Source of the DNA: an uncultured Chloroflexia bacterium
Lineage (GTDB): Bacteria; Chloroflexota; Limnocylindria; Limnocylindrales; CSP1-4
Direction of reading: 5' to 3'
Assembly: GCA_963725745.1 (NCBI GenBank)
Contig: CAVRZS010000004.1
Span: 538,576 to 602,575 of the forward strand
Length of the DNA: 64,000 nucleotides
Each line of letters begins with the position of its first letter. Within the stretch, counting starts at the first letter, position 1. The notes under the pieces were generated by a model. It saw nothing but the letters and a program-made list of their open reading frames with translations, did not search any database and was not told the origin of the DNA. Of the stretch, positions 13,616 to 53,503 are shown piece after piece. The translations under genes and the position numbers were made by a program.

Positions 13616-14591
13616 ATGACGGCGCACGCGATGACGACGACCTCGGCGATCGAGGTCCGCGGCCTGCGGAAGTCGTACGGCAAGCAGGTCGTGCTCGACG
13701 GAATCGACCTCGATGTCCCGGAAGGCACCGTGTTCGCGCTGCTGGGCCCGAACGGCGCCGGCAAGACGACGGTCATCCACATCCTCTCGACCCTGATCGC
13801 CGCGGACGCGGGCGAGGTCCGCATCGCGGGCTTCGACGTCGCGCGCGAGCCCGACGCCATCCGGGGCGTGATCGGCCTCACGGGCCAGGTGTCCGCTGTC
13901 GACGGCCAGTTCACAGGCGAAGAGAACCTGCGCCTCATGGCCGACCTCGAGCATCTCGGCAAGGAACGGGGACAGCGCCGCGTCGCGGAGCTGCTGGAAC
14001 GGTTCGAGCTCGTCGCGGATGCCGGCAAGCCCGCCGCGACCTACTCGGGCGGCATGCGCCGGCGCCTGGACCTCGCCATGACGCTGGTCGGCGACCCGCG
14101 GATCATCTTCCTCGACGAGCCCACGACCGGCCTCGATCCCCGCAGCCGGCGGGTGATGTGGGACATCGTGCGCGAGCTGGTCGCGGGTGGCGTCACGATC
14201 CTGCTCACCACCCAGTATCTCGAGGAGGCCGATCGGCTCGCGAGCCGGATCGCCCTGCTCGACGCGGGCCGGATCGTCGCGCAGGGCACCCCGGCCGAGC
14301 TCAAGCGGCTGGTGCCGGGCGGCAGCGTGCGGCTCGAGTTCTCCGATGCGGCGATGCTCGACCGGGCGGCCGGGGCGCTGCACGGCGCGATCCCGCGACG
14401 ACCAGAACCTGGCCCTCCAGGTGCCCAACGACGGCGGCGTGCACTCGCTTCGGGCCCTGCTCGACCGGCTGGACGCCGAGGCCATCGAGGTCGAGGGGCT
14501 GGCCATCCGGTCCGCGGATCTCGACGACGTGTTCCTGTCCCTCACCGGCCGCGAGAACGGCCAACTCGACGACAAGAAGGTGCCGGCATGA
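13616..14591 (+). pseudogene. ABC transporter ATP-binding protein (DrrA/ABC-2 type), interrupted by a +1 frameshift near 14388-14400
   Basis: GPNGAGKTT (Walker A), YSGGMRRRL (signature) and IIFLDEPTTGLD (Walker B) are in the frame of 13616. The conserved C-terminus RDDQNLALQVPNDGG...LDDVFLSLTG is in the frame of track ORF 14187..14591. That ORF's TGA overlaps the permease ATG (ATGA at 14588). Confidence 0.8.
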
Positions 14592-15409
14592 CCGCCTACA
14601 TGCTCACGGACTCCACGACCATGCTCCGGCGGAGCCTGCGGCGGATGCGCCGCTACCCGTCGCTGACGTTCTTCATTGCGGTGATCCCGGTCCTGCTCCT
14701 GCTCCTGTTCGTGTACGTGTTCGGTGGGATGCTCGGCGCCGGACTCGGGGGGCCCGGCCAGCCGGCAGGCCCAGCCGGAGCCGCCGTCGGACGCGAGGCA
14801 TACCTCGCGTACATCATCCCGGGCATCCTGCTGATGACCGCCGTCGGCGCCGGGCAGGGGACGGCGATCACCGTCGCGATGGACATGACCGCCGGGATCA
14901 TCGCGCGCTTCCGAACGATGTCGATCGCTCGTGGCGCCGTCCTGGGCGGCCACGTCTTTGGCAGCGTCATCCAGACGGCGATCGCGATGCTGATCGTGAT
15001 CGTGGTCGCCCTCCTGGTCGGGTTCCGGCCGACGACCGAACCGCTGTCCTGGTTGGCTGCGCTGGGGCTCCTCGCCCTGACCTCAATCGCCGTGAGCTGG
15101 CTGTCGGTCGGGATGGGGATGGTCACGGGCAGCGTCGAGACCGCCAGCAACATCCCGATGATCCTGACCCTGCTGGTGTTCCTGAGCTCGGCCTTCGTCC
15201 CGACGGCATCGATGCCCGACCCGCTGCGCTGGTTCGCCGAGCACCAGCCGTTCACGCCGATCGCGGAGACGCTGCGCGGCCTGCTGTTCGGCACGCCGAT
15301 CGGGGACAGCGGCATCGTCGCCGTGGCCTGGTGCGTCGTGATCTCGGTCGGCGGCTACCTCTGGGCGCGCCGTCTCTACGAGCGGGCGCCGATGCGCGTC
15401 GCGGCGTAG
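14588..15409 (+). CDS. ABC-2 type transporter permease
   Basis: ATG 14588 gives MTAYMLTDSTTMLRRSLRRMRRYPSLTFFIAVIPVLLLLLFVYVFG..., with about six hydrophobic segments typical of DrrB-like permeases. It happens to be in the same frame as 13616, which creates the artificial 597-aa track ORF. Confidence 0.85.
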   Translation: MTAYMLTDSTTMLRRSLRRMRRYPSLTFFIAVIPVLLLLLFVYVFGGMLGAGLGGPGQPAGPAGAAVGREAYLAYIIPGILLMTAVGAGQGTAITVAMDMTAGIIARFRTMSIARGAVLGGHVFGSVIQTAIAMLIVIVVALLVGFRPTTEPLSWLAALGLLALTSIAVSWLSVGMGMVTGSVETASNIPMILTLLVFLSSAFVPTASMPDPLRWFAEHQPFTPIAETLRGLLFGTPIGDSGIVAVAWCVVISVGGYLWARRLYERAPMRVAA

Positions 15410-15420
15410 CAGGGGTCAGC

Positions 15421-15448
15421 CGGGTCGCGGCGCCGGGGACGCGACCCG
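15421..15448 (+). terminator. GC-rich hairpin downstream of the ABC permease (no U-tract)
   Basis: CGGGTCGCG-gcgccgggga-CGCGACCCG has a 9-bp perfect stem and starts 12 nt after the stop at 15409. Confidence 0.3.
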
Positions 15449-15460
15449 AACCGGCAATCG

Positions 15461-15695
15461 GTAGCGAGGACGCGGCTCGGGAACCAATGGGCCCTCGACG
15501 GCACCATAGGATTCGAGGTCCGCATCGAACCGGGCTCGGAGGCCACGGCGCTTCCGCGAGGACGGGCGCACCGTGATCGTCAAGAACGGCACCCGGAAGG
15601 AGAGCCGGCTGATCGAGGCGCCCACCGGCGGCGACGGCGAGGTGCTCCCCTGGGCAGCCGACGGCATCACCGGCTGGCAACGGCTGGCACCGTAG
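15461..15695 (+). pseudogene. Relic C-terminal fragment of an anti-sigma/beta-propeller paralogue
   Basis: Hand translation gives ...GNQWALDGTIGFEVRIEPGSEATA, then one base is skipped near 15551, then FREDGRTVIVKNGTRKESRLIEAPTGGDGEVLPWAADGITGWQRLAP* (TAG 15693). This aligns with the C-terminus of the protein at 32473..33747 (...SADGRYVIGILTVPNGDANRLIEIDAETGAETVIAVPGLRAWTQQRLAP*). No plausible start or N-terminal part is present. Confidence 0.4.
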
Positions 15696-15737
15696 AAGCA
15701 CCTGCTGGGGCGCGTCCCTGGCCGCCTTCAGGTGCGC

Positions 15738-16271
15738 TTACGCCAAGACGGCCTCTGGCTCGCGGCGGTGCCGCTCGACCGGTGCCGCCTCGCCCGGCGC
15801 AGGGGCGGCGTCGATCAGCGGGTCGCTGAAGGCGTGCAGGCGGAGATACCGGAACCCGAGCCAGCCGAACAGGGCGCGGACGGGGCGCGCAAGGCCAGGC
15901 ACCTCCGCGGGCGTCTCGAGGACCGGCTCGTCGAGCTCGAGCAGCAAATCGCCGAGCACGAGCCGGCAATGTCCCGCGGCGAGCACGTTGCGCACCCACT
16001 CCGACTGTTCCCCGATCGGGACGATGATCCGGTAACCGTCTTCCGTGGGCATCGGGTGGATCGGCGTCCGCCGCACGATCCCGGATGTCCGGCCGACGTG
16101 CTCGATCAGGCCGAGCTCACCGTGGGACGCGCCGATGAGACCCCGACGTTCCAGCCACGGGTCGACGGTCAGGTTCACGAACTGCGCGCCGGCGCGCCGG
16201 TTCTGGCGCCACCATCGCGCGGCGCCGTAAAGCTCGACGGCGACCACGGCAACCAACAGGTACTTGCGCAT
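15738..16271 (-). CDS. Deazaflavin (F420)-dependent nitroreductase-family / PNPOx-like protein with an N-terminal membrane anchor
   Basis: 177-aa track ORF. LIEHVGRTSGIVRRTPIHPMPTEDGYRIIVPIGEQSEWVRNVLAAGHCRLVL fits the GR.SG..R.TP....W..N..A pattern of that family. Confidence 0.6.
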   Translation of the reverse strand: MRKYLLVAVVAVELYGAARWWRQNRRAGAQFVNLTVDPWLERRGLIGASHGELGLIEHVGRTSGIVRRTPIHPMPTEDGYRIIVPIGEQSEWVRNVLAAGHCRLVLGDLLLELDEPVLETPAEVPGLARPVRALFGWLGFRYLRLHAFSDPLIDAAPAPGEAAPVERHRREPEAVLA

Positions 16272-16367
16272 GCCGATCCCTCTCTAGCACCGCAAGCCTG
16301 CAGATCGCGGCGCCATCGACACAAGGGCCGAAGCGACCGAAGCGGGCAGCCGACGTGCCAAGTCAAA

Positions 16368-16392
16368 GGCCCTCCGGGCGATCCGGAGGGCC
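16368..16392 (-). terminator. Intrinsic-terminator-like hairpin 3' of the small secreted-protein gene (copy 1 of a repeated module)
   Basis: ggccctccgggcgatccggagggcc forms a 9-10 bp GC stem. On the minus strand it is followed by TTTGACTT. It lies 50 nt downstream of the stop at 16442. Confidence 0.5.
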
Positions 16393-16441
16393 TCGTTCGT
16401 GCCGATCGGCCCCGACACGTTTGCCGGTGCCGATCAGGGCG

Positions 16442-16777
16442 TCAGTGCGTTCGATTGGGGTTGGGGGGAAGGGGCGTCCGGTTGGGGTTGCATGCGACGC
16501 CGGGGTTGAACGCGTGCGGATCGGCGAGGCCCAGCTTCACATCCTGCCCGAACGACTGGGAATGACCGCCCGGGCCGTTGGGCCCGGAGCCATCCAACGG
16601 GGCTCCCGGGTCGTCATTGTGTCCCGAGAACGAGCACCAGGACTTCCCCTGGTTGTGATCGGGGTTCTTGCCACTTCCGGTGACTTCCCCGGCCACTGCC
16701 ACACTGGCGGTCAGGGTCAGGACCATAGCGGCGGCAGAGACACCGAGTCCGATTCGTGCCAAGCGTCGGCCAGCCAT
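16442..16777 (-). CDS. Small secreted protein (signal peptide; Gly/Pro/Asn-rich)
   Basis: ATG 16777 is preceded by GGAGG 7 nt upstream. MAGRRLARIGLGVSAAAMVLTLTASVAVAGEVTG is a signal peptide. The remainder of track ORF 16442..17917 is antisense to the P-type ATPase gene. Confidence 0.65.
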   Translation of the reverse strand: MAGRRLARIGLGVSAAAMVLTLTASVAVAGEVTGSGKNPDHNQGKSWCSFSGHNDDPGAPLDGSGPNGPGGHSQSFGQDVKLGLADPHAFNPGVACNPNRTPLPPNPNRTH

Positions 16778-16939
16778 CGGCAAACCTCCCACGGACGAAG
16801 TCGGTCTCGCCATTGGCTTTCGGCACGTGTCGGGCGACCGCTCGATGGGGACCGTGCCGTAGGAACGCCCCCCGATGGCTCCCGCCACCCCTCCGTTCTC
16901 GGGCATGATGGCGAACGCGGTGGCGTTGTGCCAGATCCG

Positions 16940-17175
16940 TGGGGCGATAGGTGGTGCCAGGCCGCACCGCCGCTGCAAGCGAATGCCCGTCCGGGGCGAT
17001 CCGGGGGGAGGGTCAGGCCAGCGCCCGGCGCTCACGTACGGCCTACTCGGATCCTTCGCGGCGATCCATCGGTGGCCCGCTCCGACGTCGTCGGGGCGTC
17101 CTCGGCCAAGGGCTGGAGAGCCTGATTCGGGATGGCCGATGCCACCGATCGGTCCGATCGGCACTTCCGTCGGGC
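16940..17175 (+). promoter_or_regulatory. Candidate structured leader (M-box/Mg2+-riboswitch-like sequence islands) upstream of the P-type ATPase
   Basis: The roughly 480-nt non-coding gap 16778..17255 contains, in order, GAUAGGUGGUGCC, CGCUGC..GCCCGUCC, GGGUCAGGCCAG, GGCUGGAGAGCC and CGAUGCCAC. These recall M-box islands (UAGGUGAGGC, CGCUGC.GCCC...GUC, GGGUCAACAG, GCUGGAUGC, CCUAUGCCAU). The similarity was judged by eye only. Confidence 0.3.
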
Positions 17176-17255
17176 ATGCCGTGGCGGTGACGCTCGGGTG
17201 CGTACCGGCAGAGGTCGCCCCGACCACGCCGGATCGACGAGCTGGAACCAGGAAC

Positions 17256-20031
17256 GTGAGCGCGTTCGCAGACACCGGATCCTCGGGCGTCCAGATCGAG
17301 GACGTCGCCGCGAGGGACCCTGTCCGGGACCCCTGGGCGGCCAATGTCCCGGAGGTCGTTGCCGCGCTCGGCTCCGACGGCGCCCGGGGCCTCGACCCCG
17401 ACGAGGCTCGGCGGCGCCTGTTCGCTGTCGGGCCGAACGAGCTCGCGGAGCGCGCCGCCAAGTCCGCGTGGCGCCTCCTAGCTGAGCAGTTCACGAACGC
17501 GATGATCCTGGTCCTGCTCGGGGCCGCCGCGATCACCGCGGCCATCGGCGACCTGAAGGACACGGCCCTCATCCTGGTCATCGTCGCGCTCAACGGGATC
17601 ATCGGATTCGTCCAGGAATACAGGGCGGAGCAGGCGATGGACGCGCTGAAGCGCATGACCAGTCCGTCAGCGCGGGTCATTCGTTCCGGCGTCACGAGCG
17701 TCCTCCCGGCGGCCGAGCTCGTCCCCGGCGACCTCGTGCGCCTCGACGCGGGGGATGTCGTGACGGCCGACATGCGCCTCGTCGAGGCTCGATCCCTCCG
17801 GATCAACGAGGCAGCCCTCACCGGCGAATCGGAACCGGCCAGCAAGATCACGGCCGAGCTTCCCGATGTCACACCCGCGGTCCTCGCCGACCAGCGGAAC
17901 ATGGCCTTCAGCGGCACCGCGGTGACCTATGGACGCGGCCTGGGCATCGTCGTGGCGACCGGGATGAAGACGGCACTGGGACGGGTCGCCGAACTCCTCG
18001 AGGAGCGCGGCAGCAGCCAGACGCCGCTCCAGCGACGGCTGTCGACCCTCGGCAAGCGACTGGCGGTCGCGGCCTTCCTGGTCTGCATCTTCGTGTTCAT
18101 CAGTGGCGTCGCCCGTGGCGAACCGGCCGACGTGATGTTCCTCGCGGCAGTGAGCCTCGCAGTCGCGGCTATCCCGGAGGGACTGCCGGCCGTCGTCACG
18201 ATCGCCCTGGCGCTGGGCGCCCGACGGATGGCCCGGCGACACGCCCTCGTTCGCAAGCTGCCGGCGGTCGAGACCCTCGGGTCGGTCACCGTGATCTGCA
18301 GCGACAAGACCGGCACCCTGACCCAGAACCGAATGCTCGCCGAACGGGTCTGGACCCCGAACGGCGACTATCGCGTGACCGGCGATGGCTACGCGCCGAC
18401 CGGACAACTCCATCCGGAGCCGGCGGCCGACGCCGCCCTGGGCCGACTCGCGCGCGTGGCCGCCGCCTGCAACGACGCATCGCTCCACGCCCCGGTCGCC
18501 AGCAATGAGCCGTGGACCATCAGCGGGGATCCGACTGAGGCTGCGCTCCTCGCACTCGCCGGAAAGCTCGAGGTGGATCTACAGCTGCTCTCCGCCGAAT
18601 ACCCGCGCGTCGAGGAGCTGACCTTCGATCCTCAGCGACGACGGATGGCGACCATCCACACGGGCGGTGCGAAGGTCTGGGTTGCTGTGAAGGGCGCCCT
18701 GGAGGCAATCGGACCCCTCCTCGATGCGACCGACGCCGGCCTGCTGCGGCAGGCGGAGCGCGTCGCCGAGCGTTACGCAGCCGACGGATACCGCGTGCTG
18801 GCGTTCGCGGAGCGCATGATCGACGACGTCCCCGCCCAGCTCGACGACGCCGAGCATGGTCTCCATCTTCTGGGCATCGTCGCGATGGCGGACCCGCCGC
18901 GTGAGGCCTCCGCCCCGTCAATCGCGGCCTGCCGTCTGGCGGGCATCACGCCGATCATGATCACCGGCGATCACCCCCTGACGGGCAACGCGATCGCGCG
19001 ACGGATCGGCGTCCTGCGCGACGGCAGACGCAGCCTGACCGGCGCCGAGCTCGAGGAGCTCGACGACGCCGCCTTCGAATTCGATCGTGGCCGATGTTGC
19101 CGTGTATGCGCGGACCAACCCCGAACAGAAGCTCCGCATCGTTGATGCCTGGCGACGCCGTGGCGCGATCGTCTCGATGACGGGCGACGGCGTGAACGAT
19201 GCACCAGCCCTGCGACGGGCCGACATCGGCGTCGCGATGGGCGTCACCGGGACCGAGGTGAGCAAGGAGGCGGCGGACATGATCCTCGCCGACGACGATT
19301 TCGCGACGATCGTCGCCGCCGTCGAGGAAGGCCGCCGGATCTACGACAACATCCGGCGCTTCGTGCGCTACCTCCTGACCACCAACTCCGCCGAGATCTG
19401 GGTGATGACGCTCGCCCCGTTCCTGGGCCTCCCGTTCCCACTCCTCGCCGTCCAGATCCTATGGGTCAACCTCATCACCGACGGGCTGCCGGCCCTCGCC
19501 TTGGGCGTGGAGCCGGCGGAGCGCGGGACGATGCGACGGCCGCCGCGGCCGCCGTCTGAATCGATCTTTGCCCGCGGCCTGTGGCAACACACGATCTGGG
19601 TCGGACTGTTGATGGCTTCCGCCGCGCTCGCGGTCCAGGGGTACGCGATCGGCGAGGGCTGGCCGTGGCAGACCATGGTCTTCGCCACCCTGGCCTTCCT
19701 GCAGCTCGGGCATGCCTTGGCCATCCGGTCGGAGACGGACAGCCTCTTCCGGCTCGGCCTCAGGTCGAACCTGCCGCTGACGATCGCCGTCGCTGCCACC
19801 TTCGTCGTGCAGATGGCCCTCATCTACCTGCCGGGCCTGCAGCCGATCTTCGGGACGGTCCCGCTGACCCTTCCCCAGCTGGCCCTCGTTCTGGTCGCCT
19901 CCACCGTTGGCTTCGCGGCGGTCGAGGTCGAGAAATGGGTCGGGCGCCGGAGGTCCGTGACGCGTCACGCGCCAACCGCGAGCGACACGGGAGGTTCAGA
20001 GATCCGGGCGGCGAGTCGCACGCCGTCGTGA
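17256..20031 (+). pseudogene. Cation-transporting P-type ATPase (type II, Ca2+/Mg2+-like), interrupted by a +1 frameshift near 19076-19087
   Basis: Track ORF 16875..19145 carries [20 protein letters not shown] and the N domain, and ends ...ELEELDDAAFEF followed by junk. Track ORF 19087..20031 continues (I)VADVAVYARTNPEQKLRIVDAWRRRGAIVSMTGDGVNDAPALRRADIGVAMG plus the C-terminal TM helices. The start is placed at GTG 17256 (VSAFADTGSS...DPWAANVPEVVAALGSDGARGLDPDEARRRL); the upstream part of the ORF is non-coding-like. Confidence 0.85.
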
Positions 20032-20077
20032 CCTTGCCACCGGTTGATTTCAGAGGCGGGTCCCCGAACGGGGCGGG

Positions 20078-21025
20078 TCAGGAACTAGAGGGTGGGCTCT
20101 GCCGCACCATAAGGACAGAGGCTCCCGAGTGCATGAGCACGTTTCGCGCCACGCTGCCGAGCAGCCATCGATCGAGGCCATGCAGGCAGCGCGAGCCGGT
20201 CACGACGAGGTCCACCTGGCGCTCGACGGCCGCGGCAATGATCGCCTGTGCCGCGTCCCCGGTCCGAACCTCCGCCTGGGCAGGAATTCCCCTGTCCGAG
20301 AGCCGTGCGGCCATCGCCGAGGCGTGCCGCTGATGCCGTTTCCGCAGTTCCTGCCGGTCGGGCTCGAGCGACAGGCTGCCGAGCGTGTACAGCCTCACCA
20401 TCAAATCGAAGGCTGCGGAATCGACCGGTGCGACGCTGAGGGCGATCGCTGATAGCCCGACGAAGGCCCCCCAGGCGGCCAGGGCGTCGGGAATGGACTC
20501 GGCGCACGGGGATCCGTCGGTTGCCACGAGCAGGCGAGACACGCCCGACCCTCGAGCGACCAGGACCGAACAGCTGGCCCGTTCGACGACCTCGGCAGAC
20601 ACGGAACCCAGCAACATCGACAAGATCGGGCCACGCCCGCGGGAGCCGAGCACGATCAGATCGGCAGCCAGGTCTGCCGCTGCCTCGACGATCACGGCCG
20701 CGGCGCGGCCACGGACGACGCGGCGATCGACGGACCAGCCGCGCCCGCCGAGGGGCGCGGCGAGGTCGGCCACGGTGGTGTCCGCGTCAAGGCGCACGCT
20801 TTCTTCGGCCTCGGCCAGCCGTGCCCCCCCAGAGGCCATCGGTTCGCCGAACCACGTGGCGGGAAGGTTGTATGCCGTGAGCAACGTCACGGACGACCCG
20901 ACCGGCAGCGATAGCGACGCGACCAGATCGCGTGCCTGGATCGATGACGACGAGCCATCGATCCCGAGGAGAATCCGCACCGCTCGCCTCCGATGAGATC
21001 GAACCCGGCTCAATGATCCACTCAT
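20078..21025 (-). CDS. Universal stress protein, tandem USP domains
   Basis: 315-aa track ORF. Domain one reads ILLGIDGSSSSIQARD...LIVLGSRGRGPILSMLLGSVSAEVVERASCSVLVAR. Domain two reads LLVATDGSPCAE...LVVTGSRCLHGLDRWLLGSVARNVLMHSGASVLMVR. The start could be GTG 20980. Confidence 0.85.
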   Translation of the reverse strand: MSGSLSRVRSHRRRAVRILLGIDGSSSSIQARDLVASLSLPVGSSVTLLTAYNLPATWFGEPMASGGARLAEAEESVRLDADTTVADLAAPLGGRGWSVDRRVVRGRAAAVIVEAAADLAADLIVLGSRGRGPILSMLLGSVSAEVVERASCSVLVARGSGVSRLLVATDGSPCAESIPDALAAWGAFVGLSAIALSVAPVDSAAFDLMVRLYTLGSLSLEPDRQELRKRHQRHASAMAARLSDRGIPAQAEVRTGDAAQAIIAAAVERQVDLVVTGSRCLHGLDRWLLGSVARNVLMHSGASVLMVRQSPPSSS

Positions 21026-21283
21026 CGACCCGCGCGGCGGCAGGGCTATTCGTCACCTTCGGCGATCGATGCAACCGCTATCAGGGGCCGCGGGACATCA
21101 GTCGCATAGCTCAGCGAGTAGAGCGGCCGCATTCTGACTGACGGTGCTTGTGCGGCGTGCTGCCGAGCGTGGGTGCCCTCCGGGCAAACGTCCATGTCAT
21201 ACCGCCATATTGGGCTCCGCTAGCGGTACGAATAGCGGTTCGGCACAGTAACGCCCCGGTCGCCCGCTGGCCCTCCCTCGAGG

Positions 21284-21580
21284 TCAGGCGCGGTGCGGAG
21301 CTGGGACCGAGACTGTTGTCACCGCGCGCATCGACTCGAGGTCGCGGAGGTCGGCCTCGTTGAGGGTGATGCGTTGCTCGAGGGTCCGGTCGAAAGCTTC
21401 CCGATCGAACGCCAGCGCCGGGTGGAGCCGCACCAACGTCGAGGCGAGCCATTCGAAGTGCTCATAGAGCCCCGGATTGACGTCGTCGGCCCGCACCCGG
21501 TCGACCCACTGGGCAAGCACGCCCCACCAGTTGTCGGCCCCGCCGAGGCCCTCCGCGACCAGCCGAGGGGCGGCGGTCAT
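21284..21580 (-). CDS. Hypothetical protein, translationally coupled to the upstream lipoprotein gene
   Basis: ATG 21580 overlaps the lipoprotein TGA (ATGA at 21577-21580). MTAAPRLVAEGLGGADNWWGVLAQWVDRVRADDVNPGLYEHFEWLASTLVRLHP shows protein-like composition. I recognise no family. Confidence 0.5.
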   Translation of the reverse strand: MTAAPRLVAEGLGGADNWWGVLAQWVDRVRADDVNPGLYEHFEWLASTLVRLHPALAFDREAFDRTLEQRITLNEADLRDLESMRAVTTVSVPAPHRA

Positions 21581-22152
21581 GGACACCCTGCACGGCAAAG
21601 GGCAGGCAGGTGGAGGTCGGACCGCACTCGATCCACCGCATCCGCCATCCTGCTCGTGGCGTCACGCCGATGCCTCGCCGCGATGTAGTAATCGGCCATT
21701 GACCCGGCGGCGAGAAGTGCCGACGCCTTGCGATTCCACGCTTGGAGCCGCATGACCTTCCGGATCAGACTATGCAGATCCGCCGCCGTGTCGGCAGGGA
21801 CGGCGACCTTCTTCAGGTCAGCTGCGAACTGGCCCCAGATCTCCGCTGCCGGCTTCGGGGATGACGCATCGAAAGCCTGGACATTGGCATCGGATGCTGC
21901 CAGGTACCCGGCCGCGGCTGCCGTCCGGAGCGCTTCAGGGTCGGGCGTGGGTGTCGGTTGTGGCGCGGCGGAAGCGGACGGCTCCGGGTCACCGGAGCTG
22001 GGTGGAGCCTCGACGCCGTTTGCGGCAGGCGCCGAGGCATCCACGTGCGCCACCGTACTGCTCGCGGGCGACGCCGGCGGCGAGGTGGGCGTCGTGCTCC
22101 CGCAGCCGGCGAGTAGACACGCGACGACGAACGCGATTGACGCCAGCTTCAT
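21577..22152 (-). CDS. Lipoprotein with a Pro/Ser/Thr-rich linker and a helical C-domain
   Basis: ATG 22152 is preceded by GAGGAG. MKLASIAFVVACLLAGCGS carries a lipobox (LAGC). Only the last 191 codons of track ORF 21577..23097 are used; the rest runs through the tRNA gene. Confidence 0.7.
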   Translation of the reverse strand: MKLASIAFVVACLLAGCGSTTPTSPPASPASSTVAHVDASAPAANGVEAPPSSGDPEPSASAAPQPTPTPDPEALRTAAAAGYLAASDANVQAFDASSPKPAAEIWGQFAADLKKVAVPADTAADLHSLIRKVMRLQAWNRKASALLAAGSMADYYIAARHRRDATSRMADAVDRVRSDLHLPALCRAGCP

Positions 22153-22335
22153 GTCGGACGGCTCCTCTCGTGACGGATGGGTCACCAGGTATGAGGGGGG
22201 AATCCGTCGAAACCGTTCATGCCGTGCGCGACCACCTGACGCTCGCCATGGAGGGGCGCGCGGCGGCGCGTATGGATCGGATCCTCGGCCGCGCCGCCGG
22301 ATCACGGCACGAACGGCGGTACGGCCCCAAAGCGA

Positions 22336-22362: not shown

Positions 22363-22379
22363 CATTCGTGCGGGGAAAT

Positions 22380-22454
22380 TGGCTGGCGCGCCAGGATTCG
22401 AACCTGGAACCCCCTGATCCAGAGTCAGGTGCTCTACCGTTGAGCCACGCGCCA
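22380..22454 (-). tRNA. tRNA-Gln (anticodon CUG), CCA encoded
   Basis: The reverse complement folds by hand as TGGCGCG-TG-GCTC-AACGGTA-GAGC-A-CCTGA-CTCTGGA-TCAGG-GGGTT-CCAGG-TTCGAAT-CCTGG-CGCGCCA-G-CCA (75 nt). All four stems are perfectly paired, the T-loop is TTCGAAT, and the anticodon loop is CU-CUG-GA. Confidence 0.9.
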
Positions 22455-24564: not shown

Positions 24565-25752
24565 ATGACCATGGAATTCCTGTCGCGCGCCCGCGCCGCC
24601 CTGTCCGAGAACCCGCTGATTGTCGATACCGCGATCGCCGTGTTCCTTGCCGTGCTCTCGCTCCTGACGTACGCGAGCGCCTCGCCGGACGTCGGTCCGA
24701 CGAGCGCGGTCATCGTGGCCCTGCTGCTGCTCGAGAGCCTCCCGCTGATCGTGCGCCGCCGCTATCCCCTCGCGGTCATGGGGGTCATCTCGGGCGCCAC
24801 GATGGTGCACCTCGCGATCAACCCGCCCGGCGAGGCTGTCCAGGCAGGGCTGGGCATCCTCGTCGCGGTCTATACGGTTGGAGCGCGGCTCGACCGGCGC
24901 ACGTCGCTGACGGCCACGGCGTTGACCGGCGCCCTGATCGCCGTCGTCTTCATCGGTCGCGCGGGCATCGCCGTCGTATTCGCGTCGCTCGTGCAGACCG
25001 AGCTGATCTTCGTCCTTGCCTGGTTGCTCGGCGACGCGGCGCGGATCCGCGGCCTGTACGCGGGCACGCTCGAGGAGCGGGCACGGCTGCTGGAGCGCGA
25101 GCGTGACGAGCAGACCGAGCGTGCCGTCCGCGACGAGCGGGAGCGGATCGCGCGCGAGCTCCACGACGTCGTCACGCACCACGTGAGCGTGATGGTGATC
25201 CAGGCAGGCGGGGCGCGGCGGGTCATCGACAGGCGGCCCGACGAGGCGCGGTCGGCGCTCGACGCGATCGCGACCACCGGGCGGCTCGCGCTGACGGACA
25301 TGCGCCGGATGCTCGGCATCCTGGGCGAGCAGGAGGCCGCGGACCCGACGCCCGGGCTCGACCGCCTCGACGAGCTGCTCGACCAGCTCCGCTCGGCAGG
25401 CCTGGCGGTGGAGCTGGTGATCGAGGGCGAGCCGCGTGCCCTCGATCCGGGACTCGCCGTGTCGGCCTACCGGATCATCCAGGAGGCGCTGACGAACTCG
25501 CTCAAGCACGCGGGTGGGGGAACGGCCCGCGTCGTCGTCCGGTATGCCACGGATGCGCTCGAGATCACGGTCGAGGACGAGCGAGGCCCGGGTGCACCCA
25601 GCGTCGTCGAGCCACCGCACGAGGGCCGCGGACTGATCGGCATGCGGGAGCGGGCATTGATGCTCCGGGGGACGCTGGTCGCGCATCCGACGGCCGCCGG
25701 GTTCCTGGTCACGGCGCGCCTGCCCCTCAACGCGGCGGGATCCCCCGCATGA
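24565..25752 (+). CDS. Sensor histidine kinase, NarL-partner type (HisKA_3)
   Basis: 395-aa track ORF with N-terminal TM helices. ERERIARELHDVVTHHVSVMVIQAGGARR is the H-box, followed by the ATPase domain (AYRIIQEALTNSLKHAG...GRGLIGMRERA). The stop overlaps the RR start (ATGA at 25749). Confidence 0.9.
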   Translation: MTMEFLSRARAALSENPLIVDTAIAVFLAVLSLLTYASASPDVGPTSAVIVALLLLESLPLIVRRRYPLAVMGVISGATMVHLAINPPGEAVQAGLGILVAVYTVGARLDRRTSLTATALTGALIAVVFIGRAGIAVVFASLVQTELIFVLAWLLGDAARIRGLYAGTLEERARLLERERDEQTERAVRDERERIARELHDVVTHHVSVMVIQAGGARRVIDRRPDEARSALDAIATTGRLALTDMRRMLGILGEQEAADPTPGLDRLDELLDQLRSAGLAVELVIEGEPRALDPGLAVSAYRIIQEALTNSLKHAGGGTARVVVRYATDALEITVEDERGPGAPSVVEPPHEGRGLIGMRERALMLRGTLVAHPTAAGFLVTARLPLNAAGSPA

Positions 25753-26433
25753 GCATCCGGATCCTGCTGGTCGACGATCAGGAGCTCGTGCGGACGGGCT
25801 TCCGCGATGATTCTCGCCGACGAAGAGGGGATCGAGGTGGTGGGGGAGGCCGCGAACGGGCGCGAGGCGATCGACGCCGCGGCCCGGCACCGCCCCGACG
25901 TGGTCGTGATGGACATCCGGATGCCGGTCATGGACGGCGTCGAGGCGACCCGTCGGCTCACCGCGCCGGGTTCGGTGGACTCGCCGCGGGTCCTGGTGCT
26001 CACGACGTTTGACACCGACGAGCACGTCATCGAGGCGCTGCGCGCCGGCGCGAGCGGGTTCCTGCTCAAGGACGTGACGCCGGCCGACTTCGTCGCCGCG
26101 ATCCGGATCGTCGCCTCGGGCGAGGCGCTGATCGCCCCCTCGGTGACCCGCCGCCTGCTCGAGCGGTTCGTGCAGCTCGCCCCCTCCACCGACGCCCAGC
26201 GCGACCGCCAGCTCGGGCAGCTCACTGAGCGGGAGCGCGAGGTCCTGACGCTCGTCGCCCAGGGCCTGTCCAATCGCGAGATCGCCGACCGTCTGGTGCT
26301 CGCCGAGCCGACGGTCAAGACCCACGTGTCCCACCTGCTGCTCAAGCTCGATCTGCGCGATCGCGCCCAGCTCGTCGTGCTCGCATACGAAGCGGGGATC
26401 GTCCAGCCGGGGTCGGCCAGACCCGGGGCCTAG
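25749..26433 (+). pseudogene. NarL/LuxR-family response regulator, interrupted by a +1 frameshift near 25803-25807
   Basis: MSIRILLVDDQELVRTGFR (frame of 25749) continues as MILADEEGIEVVGEAANGREAIDAAARHRPDVVVMDIRMPVMDG...LTEREREVLTLVAQGLSNREIADRLVLAEPTVKTHVSHLLLKL in the frame of track ORF 25807..26433. The junction reads ttc cgc g atg att. Confidence 0.85.
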
Positions 26434-30729: not shown

Positions 30730-31555
30730 ATGAGCGCGGTCGAGCAGCCGGGACACGTGCACGAGCACGTCCACGCCCACGAGCACGCGGTCGGCCACAC
30801 GCACGACCACGACGAGCCGGCCCACCCGCACGCCGGCGTCGCCTCGACGGCCGTCGTGATCGAGCACCTTCATTACCGCTATCCCGACGGCTTCGAGGCG
30901 CTCAAGGGGCTCGATCTCGTCGATCGGGGCAGGCGAGAAGGTCGCCCTCGTCGGGCCCAACGGGGCCGGCAAGAGCACGTTGATGCTCCATCTCAACGGG
31001 ATCTACGAGCCGAGCCACGGCAGCGTGCGCATCGGCGACATGGTCGTCGACCGGTCGACCGTGCGCCGGATCCGGGCGAAGGTGGGCCTCGTGTTCCAGG
31101 ATCCCGACGACCAGCTGTTCAGCCCGACGGTGTTCGAGGACGTGGCCTTCGGGCCGCTGCACATGGGCGTTGCCGAGGCCGAGATCCACGACCGGGTCGA
31201 GCGTGCCCTGGCGGCCGTGGGCATGGCCGGCAGCGAACGGCGCATGCCGCACCGCCTGAGCCTCGGCCAGCGCAAGCGGGTGGCGCTCGCCACCGTGCTG
31301 TCGATGGACCCGGAGGTGCTGGTGTTCGACGAGCCGTCGGCGGGGCTGGATCCACGGGGCCGCCGCGAGCTGATCGGGGTGCTCGAGGGCCTGCGTCAGA
31401 CGCTGCTCGTCTCGACCCACGACATGCGTCTCGTGGACGAGGTCTTCGCACGCACGGTCGTCATGGACGACGGCCGGATCGTGGGCGACGGGCCGACCGG
31501 CTCGATCCTGGGCGATGAGCGGTTCCTGCACGACCACGGGCTCGAGCGACCGTAG
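30730..31555 (+). pseudogene. cbiO: ECF transporter ATPase CbiO with a His-rich N-terminal tract, interrupted by a +1 frameshift near 30918-30923
   Basis: MSAVEQPGHVHEHVHAHEHAVGHTHDHDEPAHPHAGVASTAVVIEHLHYRYPDGFEALKGLDLV is in the frame of 29938. The next segment IGAGEKVALVGPNGAGKSTLMLHLNGIYEP...LSLGQRKRVALA...VLVFDEPSAGLD is in the frame of track ORF 30980..31555. The junction reads ctc gtc g atc ggg. Confidence 0.8.
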
Positions 31556-42016: not shown

Positions 42017-42065
42017 CCCGGCATCGTACTCACGGGGCGGGTGTAAACTCGGCCGACAATCGAAG

Positions 42066-42160
42066 ATCCGCCTCCGGGGAGCGCGCGAGCGCTGAGAGTG
42101 TGGTGCAGACCACAGACCCGCGGAACCTGATCCGGTTCGTACCGGTGTAGGAAGCAGGCC
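42066..42160 (+). promoter_or_regulatory. TPP (THI-box) riboswitch
   Basis: GGGGAGC..GCGCUGAGA..(hairpin GUGGUGCAGACCAC)..ACCC..GCGGAACCUGAUCCGGUUCGUACCGGUGUAGGAAGC contains the hallmark CUGAGA, ACCC and ACCUGAUC.GG.U...ACC.G.G.AGGnA elements in the right order. It is followed by an 11-bp GC hairpin (42174..42199) plus TTCGTGCTT, and by GGAGG 12 nt before the ykoE ATG. Confidence 0.85.
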
Positions 42161-42227
42161 CGCAGCCACAGCACGCCGTCCCCGGCATCGGGGGCGGCGT
42201 TCGTGCTTGACGGAGGTCCAGGGATCG

Positions 42228-45382: not shown

Positions 45383-45473
45383 GGCGCCGACCAGGCGCCA
45401 AACCAGGCGCGACGGATCGGGTCACCAGACGCGAGCCGTGCCATGATCGAAGCAACGACCGACTGAGCGACGG

Positions 45474-47177: not shown

Positions 47178-47194
47178 ACCGGATCGGTCCGTCG

Positions 47195-48408
47195 TCAGCC
47201 CGTCGCTTCGAGCTCCGTCCAGGTTCGGACCGGCATCCGCGGGTCGAAATACGCGAAGGTGCCCTTGCCCAGGGCCTTGGCCGCATACATTGCCGCGTCG
47301 GCGCGGACCAGCAGGTCCTTGGCCACAGCGCTTCCCTCGTGGCCGGGCCCGTGGCGCACAGCGACGGCGATGCCGATCGACCCATCGACGACGATCGAAC
47401 GCCCGCCGAGCTGGATCGGTCGCCGCAGCTCGCCGAGGATCCGCTGGGCGGCCGCGGAGGCCTCCTCCTCGGCGACGACGTTGACGAGCAGGATCGCGAA
47501 CTCGTCGCCGCTCTGGCGGCCGACGACGTCGCCCTCCCGAACCGCGCGCGCCAGGCGCTCCGCGACGCGACACAGGATGTCGTCCCCGGCCGCATGGCCG
47601 AACGTGTCGTTGACCCGCTTGAAGTCGTCGAGGTCGACGAACAGGAGCGCCACGCGACCGAGCTCGCGTCCCTGCCGCGCGAGGGCTCGCTCCAGGTGAT
47701 CGCGCAGCAGCACGCGATTGGCCAGGCCGGTCAGCGGATCGTGCAGCGCATCGTGGATGAGCTGCGACTCCAGCCGCTTGCGGTCCGTCGTGTCGACCAG
47801 CAGGCCCTGCGAGACTCGCCGCCCGCTCCGGGTATCGTCCGCCATCGCGAAGGCCTCGTCGCGGACCCAGACCTCCGAGCCGTCTCGGGCCAGCATCCGG
47901 TACTCCGCGCGGAGCGGCTCGCCGGTGCGCCAGTGCGCGTCGTACGCCGCGATCGCCGCCGATCGGTCCTCGGGATGGATGCGACTGGGCCACAGCTCGG
48001 GGTCGTCGACGAGCTCGTCGGGCCCGTAGCCGAGGATGCCGGTGATCTGCGGGCTCATGTAGGCGAGGCGGCCGCCGTCGGAGACGTCGGGGTCGGCCAT
48101 GTCGATGTAGACCGCCGCGGGCACGTGCTCGACGAGCACCCTGAGGCGCGTTGCCGAATTCGCGCCTCCCGCGTCGAACGCTCCAGGCCGGCCGCCGCGG
48201 CACGCAGACGCACGAGCAGGATCGCCCCGCAGCCGAGCACGAGGGCCAGCGCACAGACGGCGATCACAATCCGCGCGGACGTCGAGCCGATCACCGTCGC
48301 GCCGAGGATCGACGCGATGCCCAGCACCCCGAGAACGATGGCGCCGCCGAACAAGCCGACCACGTGAACGCCGTCGGGCACGCCGAACCGTTGCGTGGGC
48401 TGATCCAC
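47195..48408 (-). pseudogene. Membrane-anchored PAS-GGDEF diguanylate cyclase, interrupted by a frameshift (-1 / +2 type) near 48160-48175
   Basis: The N-terminal TM part MDQPTQRFGVPDGVHVVGLFGGAIVLGVLGIASILGATVIGSTSARIVIAVCALALVLGCGAILLVRLRAAAAGLERSTREA is in track ORF 48055..48408. The body is in the frame of track ORF 47195..48538: NSATRLRVLVEHVPAAVYIDMADP... (PAS), HDPLTGLANR, and RQSGDEFAIL (GGDEF variant SGDEF). Confidence 0.8.
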
Positions 48409-48552
48409 GCCGCGACGCTACGCTCGCCCCTTGGGGCCGACCACCACGCAATGGGACCAGTACCTCGGTCGCGCACGGGAACGATTCGGCGACGAGGCAC
48501 GCCCTAGCATTCGAGCGCGTCCTCCAGTGTCGCGCCAACCGAAGGGGCGTCC

Positions 48553-49116
48553 GTGGACCAGCGAGGTCTCGTCGAGCGAGCGCAGCGGGGCGATCATGAC
48601 GCCTTCGCGGTGCTGGCCGGCGCGTCCATCGCGCGGCTGGACTCGGCCGCCCGCCTCATCGTCCGGGACCAGGACCTCGCGCGGGACGCGGTCCAGGACA
48701 CGCTCGTCCGCTGCTGGCGCGACCTGCCCACGTTGCGCGACCCGGTCGCCTTCGACGGCTGGCTGCACCGGCTCCTCGTCCATGCCTGTCTCGACCTCGT
48801 TCGCCGTCGACGCCGACGGGTGATGGAGGTCGAGCTCACCTCGCTGCACTCGCCGGCGATCGGCGACTTCAGCGGCCAGGTGATCGACCGCGACCTCCTT
48901 GATCGCGCGCTGTCCGGGCTCGCCCCGGACTGGCGCGCGATCGTCGTCCTGCACTACTTCCTCGAGGTGCCGCTGCCGGAGGTGGCGGCAAGCCTCGGGA
49001 TCCCGCTCGGGACCGCGAAGTCGCGGCTGCACCGGGCGATCGGCGTCCTCCGCACGGCCGCCGGCAACGACGCCGTCCAGACCGGCATCGCGATCGCGGA
49101 ACGGAGGCCGGCATGA
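48553..49116 (+). CDS. ECF (group 4) RNA polymerase sigma factor (second copy)
   Basis: 187-aa track ORF. Region 2 reads DAVQDTLVRCWRDLPTLRDPVAFDGWLHRLLVHACLDLVRRR. Region 4 reads IVVLHYFLEVPLPEVAASLGIPLGTAKSRLHRA. The stop overlaps the next gene start (ATGA at 49113). Confidence 0.9.
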   Translation: MDQRGLVERAQRGDHDAFAVLAGASIARLDSAARLIVRDQDLARDAVQDTLVRCWRDLPTLRDPVAFDGWLHRLLVHACLDLVRRRRRRVMEVELTSLHSPAIGDFSGQVIDRDLLDRALSGLAPDWRAIVVLHYFLEVPLPEVAASLGIPLGTAKSRLHRAIGVLRTAAGNDAVQTGIAIAERRPA

Positions 49117-50426
49117 CCCAGTTCGACCGCTTCGAGCGCGAGCTCCCCGTGGCGCTGGGCGACGTGGCCGGCACCGGGGCGCCCGACTACCTCACCGACA
49201 TCCTCGGGCGGACCGCCCGCACCCGGCAGCGACCCGCCTGGGCCTCCCTCGAAAGGTGGCTCCCCATGGACCTCGCAACCCCGCGGGCGGCGACCGCCCG
49301 TGTCCCGTGGCGCGCGGTGGCCGCGCTCGCCCTGATTGCCTTCCTGCTCGTTGCCCTGGTGGCCATCTACGCCGGTGGCCAACGCCATGTCCCGCCGCCA
49401 TTCGGCCCGGCCGCCAACGGCCTGATCCCGTACGACGTCGACGGCGACATCTTCGTCGCCGACCCGATCGACCGGCGCTAGTCGCCTCCTCTCCGGCGGG
49501 CCCGCAAACGACTACATCCCGACGCTTCTCTCCCGATGGCACCCACGTCTCCTTCCTCCGGGCGTCGTCCGACTGCCCCACCCCCGGCGACGTGTGCCCG
49601 GGGGGCGAGGAGATCATGGTCGTGGCCGCTGACGGCAGCGGCGCGCACGCGATCAGCGGCCAGCCGCTCGTCGGCCTGCGGGTCGCGAACTGGGTCCCCG
49701 ACAGCCGCAACGTCCTCGTCGGCTACGTCGACGACGGCGTGTTCCGGCTGGTGGAGTTGCCGATCGACACCGGAACGCCTCGCCATGGTCGCCGAGGGTT
49801 TCGAAGTCGATTGCGGCCGTGTTCCGACCCGCCGGCCGGCGACGAGCTCCTCGTGCGTGGCCTCGTGGACGGCAACGTCGGGCCTGTATCGCATGAACGC
49901 GGACGGCTCGGACCTGCGGCTGCTCGCGAACGCCGCCACGCCCGGCGAGACGCTCGGCGACAACCAGGACCTCAACTTCCCGGCCTATGCGCCCGACGGC
50001 AGCCGGATCTTCTTCAACCGCTACGTCCCGGCGGCCCAGACGATCCAGGCCTGGGTCATGAACCCCGATGGCTCCAACCCGCACCGGTTCAACCAGGCGG
50101 GACCCGTCTGCTGCTGGTGGGAGGGCGAGATGGCGCCGTCGCCTGACGGCAAGTCGGTGCTGATGTGGCGCGTGTCACCCGACAGCGAGGACGGTGGCGG
50201 CATCACCGTGTATCCGGCGGACGGGACCGGCCCGGGACGGTTGATCGGCCCCGACCTGGCGGATACCGGCCACTGGGCCTGGGCACCCGACTCGACCCGC
50301 GTCCTCGTGAACCACAACGACGCCGCGCAGGGCGGCCAGGTGCTGATCGACCCTGCCACCGGCACCTGGGAACCGGCACCGTGGCATGACAACGCCGAGC
50401 CCGACTGGCAGCGCACCGCGCGCTGA
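49113..50426 (+). pseudogene. Anti-sigma / TolB-like beta-propeller paralogue carrying multiple +1 frameshifts
   Basis: The N-domain plus TM is in track ORF 49113..49481 (...VPPPFGPAANGLIPYDVDGDIFVADP). TGASRLLSGGPANDYIPT is in the +1 frame. FSPDGTHVSFLR...VELPIDTGTP is in the frame of ORF 48899..50146. LYRMNADGSDLRLL...SPDGKSVLMW...DWQRTAR* is in ORF 49536..50426. The blades align with the intact paralogue at 32473..33747. Confidence 0.75.
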
Positions 50427-50451
50427 GTCGCATCCAGGCAGCCACTGATGG

Positions 50452-50477
50452 GAGCCCCGGCCCCGCGGCCGGGGCTC
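50452..50477 (+). terminator. Perfect 11-bp GC hairpin downstream of the anti-sigma pseudogene (no U-tract)
   Basis: GAGCCCCGGCC-ccgc-GGCCGGGGCTC lies 26 nt after the stop at 50426. Confidence 0.35.
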
Positions 50478-50581
50478 GATCGCGTCCCGCTTGACGGGCG
50501 TCGCTGGTCGGCGGACGCGGGGAGGGGCACAATCCGGGCATCACCAACCGGATCCGCGGCAAGCGCGCTCGTCGGCGCGCC

Positions 50582-52048: not shown

Positions 52049-53503
52049 CCGTCGACCGCGACGCCGTCGAGGCGGCGGTTCGCGACCTCGACCTCGAGGA
52101 GCTCGCCGGGCGCCGCTGGTTCGCGTCCAAGGGCCTCGTCCCATCGTCCGCGCGGCTCGCGCACGCGTTCGTCGTCACCGGCGGTTCCGTGTTCGCGCTC
52201 GTCGACCTGCGCATCGGCGAGCGTTGGGACCGCTACGCCCTCGCGTTCACAGCGGCCGATGACGAGCTGCGCGAGGCCGCCGACGACGACGGCGCCTGGC
52301 GGGCGCTTGCCGCTGCGATCGCGCACGGGCGGACCATCGGCGCGCTGCAGCGCGAGGGCGAGGCGTCGCCGAGCGCCGCCCTGGTGTGCCGGCCCGCGCC
52401 GGCCTTCGCGGACCTGTGGGCGGAGCGTTGACGGCTCCCTCGGCGATCTTGCCGATGCCGACGCGCGGCCGCTCGGCCGCGACCAGTCGAACACGTCCGT
52501 GGTGCTCGGCGACCGGCTGCTGCTCAAGGCCTATCGCCGTATCCAGCCGGGCCTCAACCCCGACCTCGAGCTGACGGCCTTCCTGTCCGAGGAGGCCGCG
52601 CTCGAGGCCGTGCCGCGGCTCGCGGGCTGGGCGGAGGTCGTCACCCGCGAGGATGGGGCGTCGACGGTCGCGATGCTGCAGCAGTTCGTTGCGAACGGGT
52701 CGGACGCGTACGAGGCGACGGCCGAGCGGCTGGCGTCGCTCGTCGCCGACCCGGGCCGAGCGGACCTCGAGGCGGCCTCGGACATCGCCGAGGACCTCGG
52801 CCTCATGGTCGCCGATCTGCACGCGGCTCTCGCCGCGGCGCCCGGCGACGTGCCCGATCTCGCGCCGCGCCCCGCGACCCACGACGAGCTCCGGGCGTGG
52901 CGCATGGATGCGGTCCGCCAGCTGCATGCATCGATCGCGGCGCTCGCCGCCACCGACCCGAAGGCCGCGGACACGTTGCGCGGCTGGGCTCCTGAGATCA
53001 CCGCCACGGTCTCGCGGTTCGAGGCGGTCGCGACCACCCCGTTGGTGATGCGCATCCATGCCGACCTGCACCTGGGCCAGGTCCTGGTCGCGCCCGAGGG
53101 CTATCGCGTGATCGACTTCGAGGGCGAGCCCCTGCGCCCGATCGAGGAACGACGGCGCCTCGACTCGCCGCTGCGCGACGTGGCCTCGATGCTGCGGTCG
53201 CTGGACCACGTCGCGCGGAGCGCACGCCGCCGCGCGACGGACCGCGCGGGCGGGCGCATCGAGCGCCCCGGGCTCGACGTCGAGGCGTGGATCGATCGTG
53301 CCCGAGACCGGTTCATCGCGGCCTATGCCGGACGGCTCGCCCGGGCCGGTGCCCCGATCGTCGTCGACCTCGACCTGCTCGACGCCTTCGAGGTCGCCAA
53401 GGAGTCCTACGAGTTCGAATATGCGGCGACGGTGCTACCGTCGTGGCTCTGGGCACCGCGCGACGGGATGCGCTGGTTGCTGTCGCGCAGGGAGGCGTCA
53501 TGA
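52045..53503 (+). pseudogene. mak: Maltokinase (Mak/Pep2-like), interrupted by a +1 frameshift near 52426-52430; start codon unclear
   Basis: The N-terminal cap ...LEELAGRRWFASKGLVPSSARLAHAFVV...PAFADLWAER* is in the tail of track ORF 51466..52431. The kinase body is in track ORF 52259..53503: DGSLGDLADADARPLGRDQSNTSVVLGDRLLLKAYRRIQPGLNPDLELTAFL...RIHADLHLGQVLV...VIDFEGEP. The junction reads gag cgt t gac ggc. Confidence 0.8.

Follow-up and report, generated by a model that had tools for sequence, protein, structure and literature searches.

Does the high density of apparently frameshifted genes in this stretch of DNA reflect the biology of an organism or the quality of a deposited sequence? 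The stretch analyzed here, referred to as the window, covers 64 kb of the genome of an uncultured Limnocylindria-like Chloroflexota bacterium (G000). The original prediction held that roughly one gene in eight is interrupted here, nearly always in a way that requires one base to be skipped, and offered as causes either assembly or basecalling insertions or ongoing gene decay. The breaks were examined using the coordinates of protein profile matches, intact orthologues and a DNA alignment with the syntenic sister genome G023. This analysis revealed seven genes with a frame change and nine change points (Table 1). The correct frame is restored by skipping one base at eight of the nine points and by adding one base at the remaining point in the PAS-GGDEF gene, which had correctly been named as the only -1 case. 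For the six genes with a single site the frame changes are genuine in the deposited sequence and lie within a few bases of the predicted positions, and the estimate of one broken gene in eight proved accurate for the window.

Table 1. Genes of the window with a change of reading frame. Bases in square brackets are the extra bases.
Gene	Position	Strand	Frame change
DrrA-like ABC ATPase	13616..14591	+	break ~14386-14389; extra base in GGCG[C]GATCC
P-type cation ATPase	16875..20031	+	break 19078-19083; extra base within GAATTCG
NarL/FixJ-type response regulator	25749..26433	+	extra base ~25805, TTCCG[C]GATG
CbiO/EcfA-type ABC ATPase	30802..31555 (start approximate)	+	extra base 30919, GATCTC[G]TCGATC
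Two-TM PAS-GGDEF diguanylate cyclase	47195..48408	-	1 base missing ~48157-48165
Anti-sigma/beta-propeller (PD40)	49113..50426	+	3 extra bases ~49470, 49523, 49877
Maltokinase (Mak/Pep2-like)	52102..53503	+	net +1 at ~52425-52430

In the DrrA-like ABC ATPase gene, positions 1-137 of the Pfam profile ABC_tran are matched in frame A. The orthologues of G022, G010 and G026 form a single open frame over residues 4-316, and a DNA alignment of five genomes contained a single extra column, located in the window sequence. As postulated, the stop codon (14589-14591) and the start codon of the permease (ATG at 14588) overlap as ATGA at 14588-14591. The break in the P-type ATPase gene splits the HAD domain: Pfam Hydrolase is matched from 2 to 137 in one frame and from 149 to 191 in the next, with Cation_ATPase_C downstream. 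The orthologues of G005 and G006 are continuous across this junction, and the window contains exactly one base more. Using the G006 protein as tblastn query, the frame switched at residue 770 with zero residues lost, and the optimal single-base removal was at 19078/19079. This was the only gene recovered when synteny around it was sought in G005 and G006; a search of the initial 1.2 Mb of G006 gave no orthologue for the remaining window genes.

The Response_reg match (Pfam) of the NarL-type regulator begins only at profile position 19, and the recorded gene call is a truncated product of 208 amino acids without the first 19 residues. The alignment with the DNA of G023 showed an isolated 1-nt gap, and the junction VRTGFR/MILADEEG is identical in a full-length homologue of 91% identity. 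This was also the top match when an intact copy of at least 95% identity was sought in public data; none was found. Likewise, the ABC_tran match of the CbiO-type protein begins at profile position 9, and the gene differs from that of G023 by an isolated 1-nt gap, with a shift of the codon-position GC phase in the window and not in G023. In the PAS-GGDEF gene PAS_3 and GGDEF (Pfam) are both encoded in frame B. The phase of GC at the third codon position (GC3) switches at ~48200-48170 in the window only; the G023 counterpart is an intact open reading frame of 404 amino acids with the TM segment, PAS and GGDEF, and the TM N-terminus is the same. For the maltokinase, Mak_N_cap was found in frame A and TIGR02457 (putative maltokinase, positions 169-528) in frame B. 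The protein is whole over residues 1-464 in about ten relatives of the genus, with intact genes in G025, G026, G011, G006, G004, G022, G003 and G002, and split at residues 107-110 in the window. The comparison with G023 again confined the change of GC phase to the window.

The anti-sigma gene, which follows an ECF sigma factor gene (48553-49116), was confirmed to be frameshifted. The assumed number of up to six shifts was an over-count, since GC phase and the G023 alignment together locate three single extra bases. The GC3 phase runs from 0 to 2 and back to 0, phase changes occur in the window only, and the gaps relative to G023 are isolated 1-nt gaps. The orthologue in G023 is encoded in one frame (residues 1-432), and that in G000 is in three pieces. 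A further 'relic' had been proposed at 15461..15695. This region gave no Pfam match at E ≤ 1 in five frames and no Rfam match. The sister genome lacks the segment 15406-22318, at whose left edge the proposed relic is located; the alignment with G023 ends at 15406 and restarts at 22318. Two additional candidate breaks were rejected: the one at 59090 marks the boundary between glpD and glpK, and the one at 54560 the end of a convergent gene. The frame changes of Table 1 were confirmed by the profile matches, the intact orthologues and the alignment with G023.

A frameshift-aware search beyond the window had been suggested and was performed by tblastn, using 1.2 Mb of the intact relative G006 against the genome. 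Breaks were found genome-wide. The conserved coding DNA covered amounted to ~583 kb and contained 54-60 frame breaks on several contigs. This corresponds to ~0.10-0.13 per kb of such DNA and to ~350-450 in 3.5 Mb. GC3 exceeded 0.8 on either side of all accepted events. In the reverse control, in which G006 was tested for breaks, at most 8 were obtained. A first reverse count of 20 G006 frameshifts had consisted mostly of mirror images of G000 breaks caused by off-frame conservation, which the GC3 filter removed. The predicted directional bias holds both in the window (8 versus 1) and genome-wide, where 42 insertion-type events compare with 12 deletion-type events (two-sided p ~5e-5, normal approximation). 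The genome scores 75.4% completeness despite only 7 contigs.

Real frameshifts, present in the organism and independently in its sister species as a result of reductive evolution or in a mutator lineage, would also appear in the deposited sequence. Some features of the breaks are compatible with such decay. A few affected genes are dispensable paralogues, and breaks cluster beyond the Poisson expectation: the anti-sigma gene (1.3 kb) contains three of them and a paralogous ATPase gene (contig C4, 8506-10515) three or more. However, single-copy essential genes are broken as well, namely those encoding PyrG, the principal sigma factor, ThyX, NuoH (two breaks) and MrdA. The first two are interrupted on contig C5, at 1371587-95 (pyrG) and 1721089 (sigma factor gene). 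No second copy of these genes was found, save for a sigma paralogue of 52% identity. The pieces past the breaks are 82-99% identical to the orthologue (up to 98.6%) and, as stated, retain the GC3 signal. In-frame stops were then counted in sense-strand matches. The raw tally was swamped by antisense open reading frames, which share the third codon position; a sense filter (GC1 > GC2) was used and the matches were judged by eye. This gave 44 HSPs with such stops versus 29 in the control genome, nearly all of them at ORF ends or adjacent to frameshifts, and no excess of clean nonsense codons over the control genome was seen in the sense-strand matches inspected. Neither this result nor the uniform type of lesion matches decay, and the sister genome G023 shares none of the breaks of the window. 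Gene decay, the second of the two options offered initially, is thus unsupported, with essential genes broken, no nonsense excess and the coding signal kept past the breaks; we regard it as highly improbable.

The sister assembly itself contains extra bases, in a different set. G023 (30 contigs, 71% complete) exhibited 43 private insertions versus 19 in G000 over 309 kb of aligned DNA, at different positions, and thus about twice the extra-base rate of G000. In the ABC ATPase gene the extra bases of the two genomes are located 27 nt apart. The polarisation of 1-nt gaps by GC3 phase misassigns events close to gene starts and ends. By this method the NarL gap was at first misclassified as a deletion in G023, and the count of 14 'deletions' in G000 is inflated for the same reason. 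A survey of the genus for Mfd, MetH, PyrG, Mak and the ABC gene, in part with a poly-protein query of 2963 amino acids, revealed mid-contig splits in 9 of 20 assemblies with at most 40 contigs. Among the 11 assemblies with at least 80 contigs, at most one had such splits in these genes, and the positions differed each time. This dependence on contig number across the genus also argues against decay.

The frame breaks are very probably uncorrected single-base errors in the consensus of the deposited assembly, and the organism itself would not carry them. Strong support for the assembly or basecalling option comes from the tests across the genome and between genomes. The artefactual nature of the breaks is inferred from these sequence comparisons. 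The consensus of this highly contiguous metagenome-assembled genome (MAG) from soil would then carry about one indel per 8-10 kb, mostly spurious insertions. An indel within a gene shifts the frame, so that about one gene in eight appears broken and completeness based on marker genes is under-estimated. The likely cause would be noisy long reads with insufficient coverage or polishing, possibly aggravated by strain heterogeneity. In long-read MAGs, frameshift correction lifted CheckM completeness from 85% to 94-95% (PMC8103633), and bins under ~40x coverage require polishing (PMC9262707). A minority of the breaks could be genuine lesions, because the errors cluster beyond Poisson.

The sequence context of the insertions was analyzed for the 62 base-resolved events of G000 and G023. 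The inserted bases track the genome composition (26 C, 18 G, 9 T and 9 A). In the genome-wide tblastn data of G000, insertions are about 3.5 times as frequent as deletions. Homopolymers were not enriched: 34% of the events lie in runs of at least 2 versus 40% of the background, and none of the 62 in runs of at least 4. Protein-localised events gave the same picture (71% versus 83% for runs of at least 2). Homopolymers are the sites of real slippage, and the position of the insertions outside of them is a further argument against decay. A mild excess of CpG was observed (30/62 versus a background of 34%, p = 0.02). The contexts were otherwise diverse, and no shared shift-site motif was present among the 62 events.

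The latter result bears on programmed +1 ribosomal frameshifting or transcriptional slippage, by which the proteins would be restored in vivo. The strong +1 bias is what such a mechanism would produce. However, besides the missing common motif, the zero-frame stop is mostly located far downstream, orthologues elsewhere do without a shift, and the sites are unconserved even between the sister genomes. The probability of this explanation is vanishingly small.

A second proposal concerned a CGATC or GATC context of the shift sites, and indeed 4 of the 9 breaks of the window lie within 3 nt of GATC. If the motif were methylated, basecalling errors at this site could be the main cause of the insertions. 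In the 309 kb of the two genomes, however, GATC was found within 3 nt of only 11 of 62 insertions (18% versus a background of 10.5%, p = 0.09). This small excess is not significant, and more than 80% of the events are located away from GATC. The proximity is more pronounced in G000 (5/19 versus 10.5%) than in G023 (6/43), and the window sample itself had prompted the idea. At 38 protein-localised events the frequency was 13% versus a background of 11%, and GATC is missing from the top 4-mers at insertions. A search for Dam-family methyltransferases, limited to PF02086, gave no match in G000 or G023, with positive control genomes. Thus, the methylated motif as insertion site is not supported, and we consider it very unlikely to be the main cause.

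Within the explanation by consensus errors, a sub-mechanism based on strain heterogeneity may be considered, in which both alleles of a substitution between co-assembled strains, often C/G at a third codon position, are retained next to each other and a 1-base insertion results. This would account for the insertion bias, the non-homopolymer sites, the composition-like bases, the CpG excess and the clustering in variable genes. In the three cleanest cases of the window the extra base is located at or just past a third codon position with a C/G neighbour, namely NarL (CG[C]G), CbiO (CTC[G]) and the anti-sigma gene (ATC[G]); however, three out of three is compatible with chance, (2/3)^3 = 0.3. 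Retention of both alleles is therefore a possible but rather doubtful source of the insertions. More tentatively still, the insertion-dominant, non-homopolymer signature might represent an undescribed consensus failure of this type. That would be likelier than the extra bases being real, with a Limnocylindria-like clade that tolerates hundreds of +1 insertions outside homopolymers, even in pyrG and the principal sigma factor gene, by rescue at the level of decoding or RNA, or with a mutator in mid-collapse, which we find scarcely credible.

Since the breaks are almost certainly consensus errors, their relevance is limited to a quality-control warning for this genome and does not extend to its biology. 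Split genes, fusions, pseudogenes, missing pathway steps and odd short open reading frames of G000 are suspect until a frameshift-aware check has been made, and the completeness of 75% is probably an under-estimate. The same caution applies to several other assemblies of the genus with few contigs (G001, G008, G022, G023, G024, G026, G029 and G034). Protein databases already contain truncated G000 products, for example the response regulator of 208 amino acids. For developers of polishing tools, the insertion-dominant and homopolymer-free signature may be of interest.

Pseudogene-rich genomes such as that of Mycobacterium leprae contain nonsense codons, deletions, IS elements and eroded coding signal, and their essential genes are intact. 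The many frameshift-interrupted genes are a shared feature; unlike in M. leprae-type decay, only 1-nt indels were found here, with an intact coding signal and broken essential genes. Programmed +1 frameshifting, as known from prfB and widespread in Euplotes, depends on a specific shift site that orthologues share and that includes a stop codon of the zero frame or a hungry codon. The breaks described here have the same direction, but neither a conserved site nor the stop or hungry codon was seen. Methylation-linked nanopore errors (Dam at GATC, Dcm) are typically substitutions at the motif and not insertions. Some sites of the window adjoin GATC, but a significant genome-wide enrichment and a Dam-family gene are lacking. 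In nanopore and high-coverage PacBio assemblies homopolymer-linked deletions are reported to predominate (PMC12007338, PMC8574707, PMC9262707), whereas in this assembly insertions prevail by ~3.5:1 independently of homopolymers; its signature is in this respect unusual. In other respects the genome resembles the long-read indel errors of the Watson & Warr type ('ideel'; PMC8103633, PMC9262707, PMC12007338): scattered 1-base indels fragment the genes, pseudogenes are inflated and marker completeness is lowered in very contiguous assemblies, the errors depend on coverage, and short-read assemblies of relatives are free of the breaks.

Nine frame breaks, i.e. single-base indels, were located in seven genes of the window (C4:538576-602575), and eight of the nine are insertions of one base. 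The names carried by close homologues point to a soil member of the Chloroflexota, in or near the class Limnocylindria. Three-frame translation revealed that the conserved proteins run on in an adjacent frame at exactly the points named in the original prediction, which had also correctly singled out PAS-GGDEF as the sole case with a missing base. Two additional candidates at 54560 and 59090 proved to be ordinary gene boundaries.

A break between profile positions 137 and 149 divides the HAD domain (Pfam) of the P-type ATPase. The orthologue of the intact relative G006 changes subject frame at residue 770 with zero residues lost. Against the relative G005, 22 residues are matched by 67 nt; thus, exactly one extra base is present, with an optimal single-base removal at 19078/19079. 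The receiver domain of the NarL regulator starts only at profile position 19, and a full-length homologue (91% identical) is uninterrupted across VRTGFR/MILADEEG. A public protein collection lists the response regulator of this genome as a truncated product of 208 aa that lacks residues 1-19 and with them the conserved acidic pair, an example of assembly errors spreading into protein databases. The ABC_tran match of CbiO starts at profile position 9. The DrrA-like ABC ATPase is a single open frame in the relatives G022, G010 and G026, a five-genome DNA alignment contains one extra column, in the window sequence, and the stop overlaps the permease start in ATGA, as described. Residues 1-464 of the maltokinase are unbroken in about ten relatives; the window copy is split at residues 107-110. 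The PAS-GGDEF counterpart in the syntenic sister genome G023 is an uninterrupted ORF of 404 aa that shares the two-TM N-terminus, and of the two genomes only the window sequence shows a shift of the codon-position GC phase, at about 48200-48170. The anti-sigma/PD40 gene is indeed frameshifted, but by three extra bases (about 49470, 49523 and 49877) rather than by up to six shifts; its G023 orthologue keeps one frame over residues 1-432. Together with its ECF sigma factor it belongs to a multi-copy family (at least four copies in the studied genome, at least eight in G023).

A segment of roughly 6.9 kb that contains the P-type ATPase and the genes next to it has no counterpart in the G023 contig, which is otherwise syntenic, and looks like a variable, island-like insertion. 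It ends beside a tRNA gene, and the relic at its left edge gave neither a Pfam nor an Rfam match.

Coordinates of features (window positions unless a genome and contig are given)
Feature	Position	Strand	Remark
Segment absent from G023	15406-22318		
Relic	15461-15695		
tRNA gene	22383-22454	-	
Truncated response regulator	25807-26433	+	
ECF sigma/anti-sigma-PD40 paralogue	~32701-33747	-	
TPP riboswitch	42065-42171	+	Rfam, 61 bits, exceeds gathering threshold
ECF sigma/anti-sigma-PD40 propeller pair	48553-50426	+	
ECF sigma/anti-sigma-PD40 paralogue	G000:C5:1429035-1430306		
P-type ATPase paralogue	G000:C4:8506-10515	-	outside window
G023 private breaks, aldehyde dehydrogenase gene	50783 and 51731		window-equivalent
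G023 private break, Mak	52762		window-equivalent
Other G023 private breaks (examples)	31775, 31905, 34551, 54231, 59345		window-equivalent

The genome-wide rate was determined by tblastn of ORFs against the whole genome studied here (G000); the ORFs came from 1.2 Mb of the relative G006, whose assembly is one contig with a 92% completeness score. This search revealed 74 raw frame-switch clusters within the 583 kb that matched (0.127 per kb). Sixty were kept after a high-GC3 filter on both sides and in both genomes, and 54 (42 insertion-type, 12 deletion-type) after a sense-strand filter. The reverse test gave at most eight frame breaks in G006, and many of its apparent breaks were mirror images of breaks in G000. 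Off-frame translations are still similar enough, when DNA identity is about 80%, to be matched by tblastn, and therefore a frameshift in the query genome appears as a 'frameshift' of opposite sign in an intact subject. Such mirror events were eliminated by a GC3 check of both query segments. Extrapolation from 0.10-0.13 breaks per kb yields about 350-450 breaks in the whole genome, roughly one gene in eight, in agreement with the fraction proposed for the window.

Gene decay, one of two explanations offered originally, is not supported, given the kind of genes hit and the state of their coding signal. The single-copy essentials CTP synthase, principal sigma factor, ThyX, NuoH (two breaks) and PBP2/MrdA, identified by NCBIfam, are broken, and the parts downstream of the breaks are 82-99% identical to the orthologue. 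Every accepted event is flanked on either side by sequence with GC3 above 0.8. Among the in-frame stops inspected in the sense-strand alignments, essentially none was a clean nonsense codon, and there was no excess relative to the control genome.

The sister genome G023 (about 80% DNA identity to G000, 30 contigs, completeness score 71%) has its own private set of breaks. In a 309 kb alignment of the two genomes, polarisation assigned 43 insertions to G023 and another 19, at differing positions, to G000; the ABC gene carries one extra base in each, 27 nt apart. The G023 contig syntenic with window 64-64000 (C6, loci L092-L099) bears 12-15 breaks of its own over the corresponding stretch of roughly 50 kb, and errors in the sister assembly are about twice as frequent as in G000. 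Thirty-one genomes of the genus were scored for genes split in mid-contig, namely Mfd, MetH, PyrG, Mak or the ABC gene. Such splits occurred in 9/20 assemblies with at most 40 contigs versus at most 1/11 with at least 80, their positions differed every time, and G022, the nearest genome to intact G006, also has split genes. Consequently, the breaks track assembly type, not phylogeny. G022 has 3-4 splits in Mfd alone and G026 three over Mfd and MetH; the few-contig assemblies G001, G008, G024, G029 and G034 also contain mid-gene splits.

The essential genes hit, the retained coding signal, the private set of the sister, the tracking of assembly type and the contiguity/completeness signature all support the other original explanation: the frame breaks are very probably assembly errors. 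They are not a biological feature and serve as a warning flag for G000 and several sibling assemblies. Completeness scores of 71-77% in several split-bearing few-contig assemblies are probably under-estimates.

The suggested role of GATC methylation was not supported. Four window sites adjoin GATC, the same sample that prompted the motif idea. At base level in the G000/G023 alignment, a GATC is no more than 3 nt away from 11/62 insertions versus a 10.5% background (p=0.09), and from 6/43 in G023 alone. GATC is not among the 4-mers enriched at insertions, 38 protein-localised events were GATC-adjacent in 13% versus 11%, and no Dam-family gene (PF02086) was found in either G000 or G023. A small excess at GATC is possible, but GATC is unlikely to be the driver of the insertions.

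The inserted bases mirror genome composition (C 26, G 18, T 9, A 9), and CpG is mildly over-represented (48% versus 34%, p=0.02). The clearest insertions in the window have the form CG[C]G, CTC[G] and ATC[G], with the extra base at or after the third codon position. Possibly, both alleles of a strain polymorphism were retained adjacently in the consensus; error clustering would suit variable, heterogeneous regions. Examples of clustering are the anti-sigma gene with three breaks and an ATPase paralogue with at least three. This paralogue (77-91% identical to the P-type ATPase) lies in four frame pieces within 2 kb; thus, errors are locally clustered.

For nanopore and high-coverage PacBio consensus, homopolymer-linked deletions are usually described (PMC12007338, PMC8574707, PMC9262707). 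In contrast, insertions outside homopolymers prevail here: runs of at least two bases were found at 34% versus a 40% background and runs of at least four at 0/62. This mismatch is the main loose end of the artefact reading. In the literature, long-read MAGs laden with frameshifts are marked by high contiguity and low marker completeness (PMC8103633, PMC9262707); CheckM completeness rose from 85% to 94-95% once frameshifts were corrected (PMC8103633), and polishing is required for bins with less than about 40x coverage (PMC9262707). G000 resembles these MAGs, being very contiguous (3.52 Mb in 7 contigs, 71% G+C) yet reaching a completeness score of just 75.4%.
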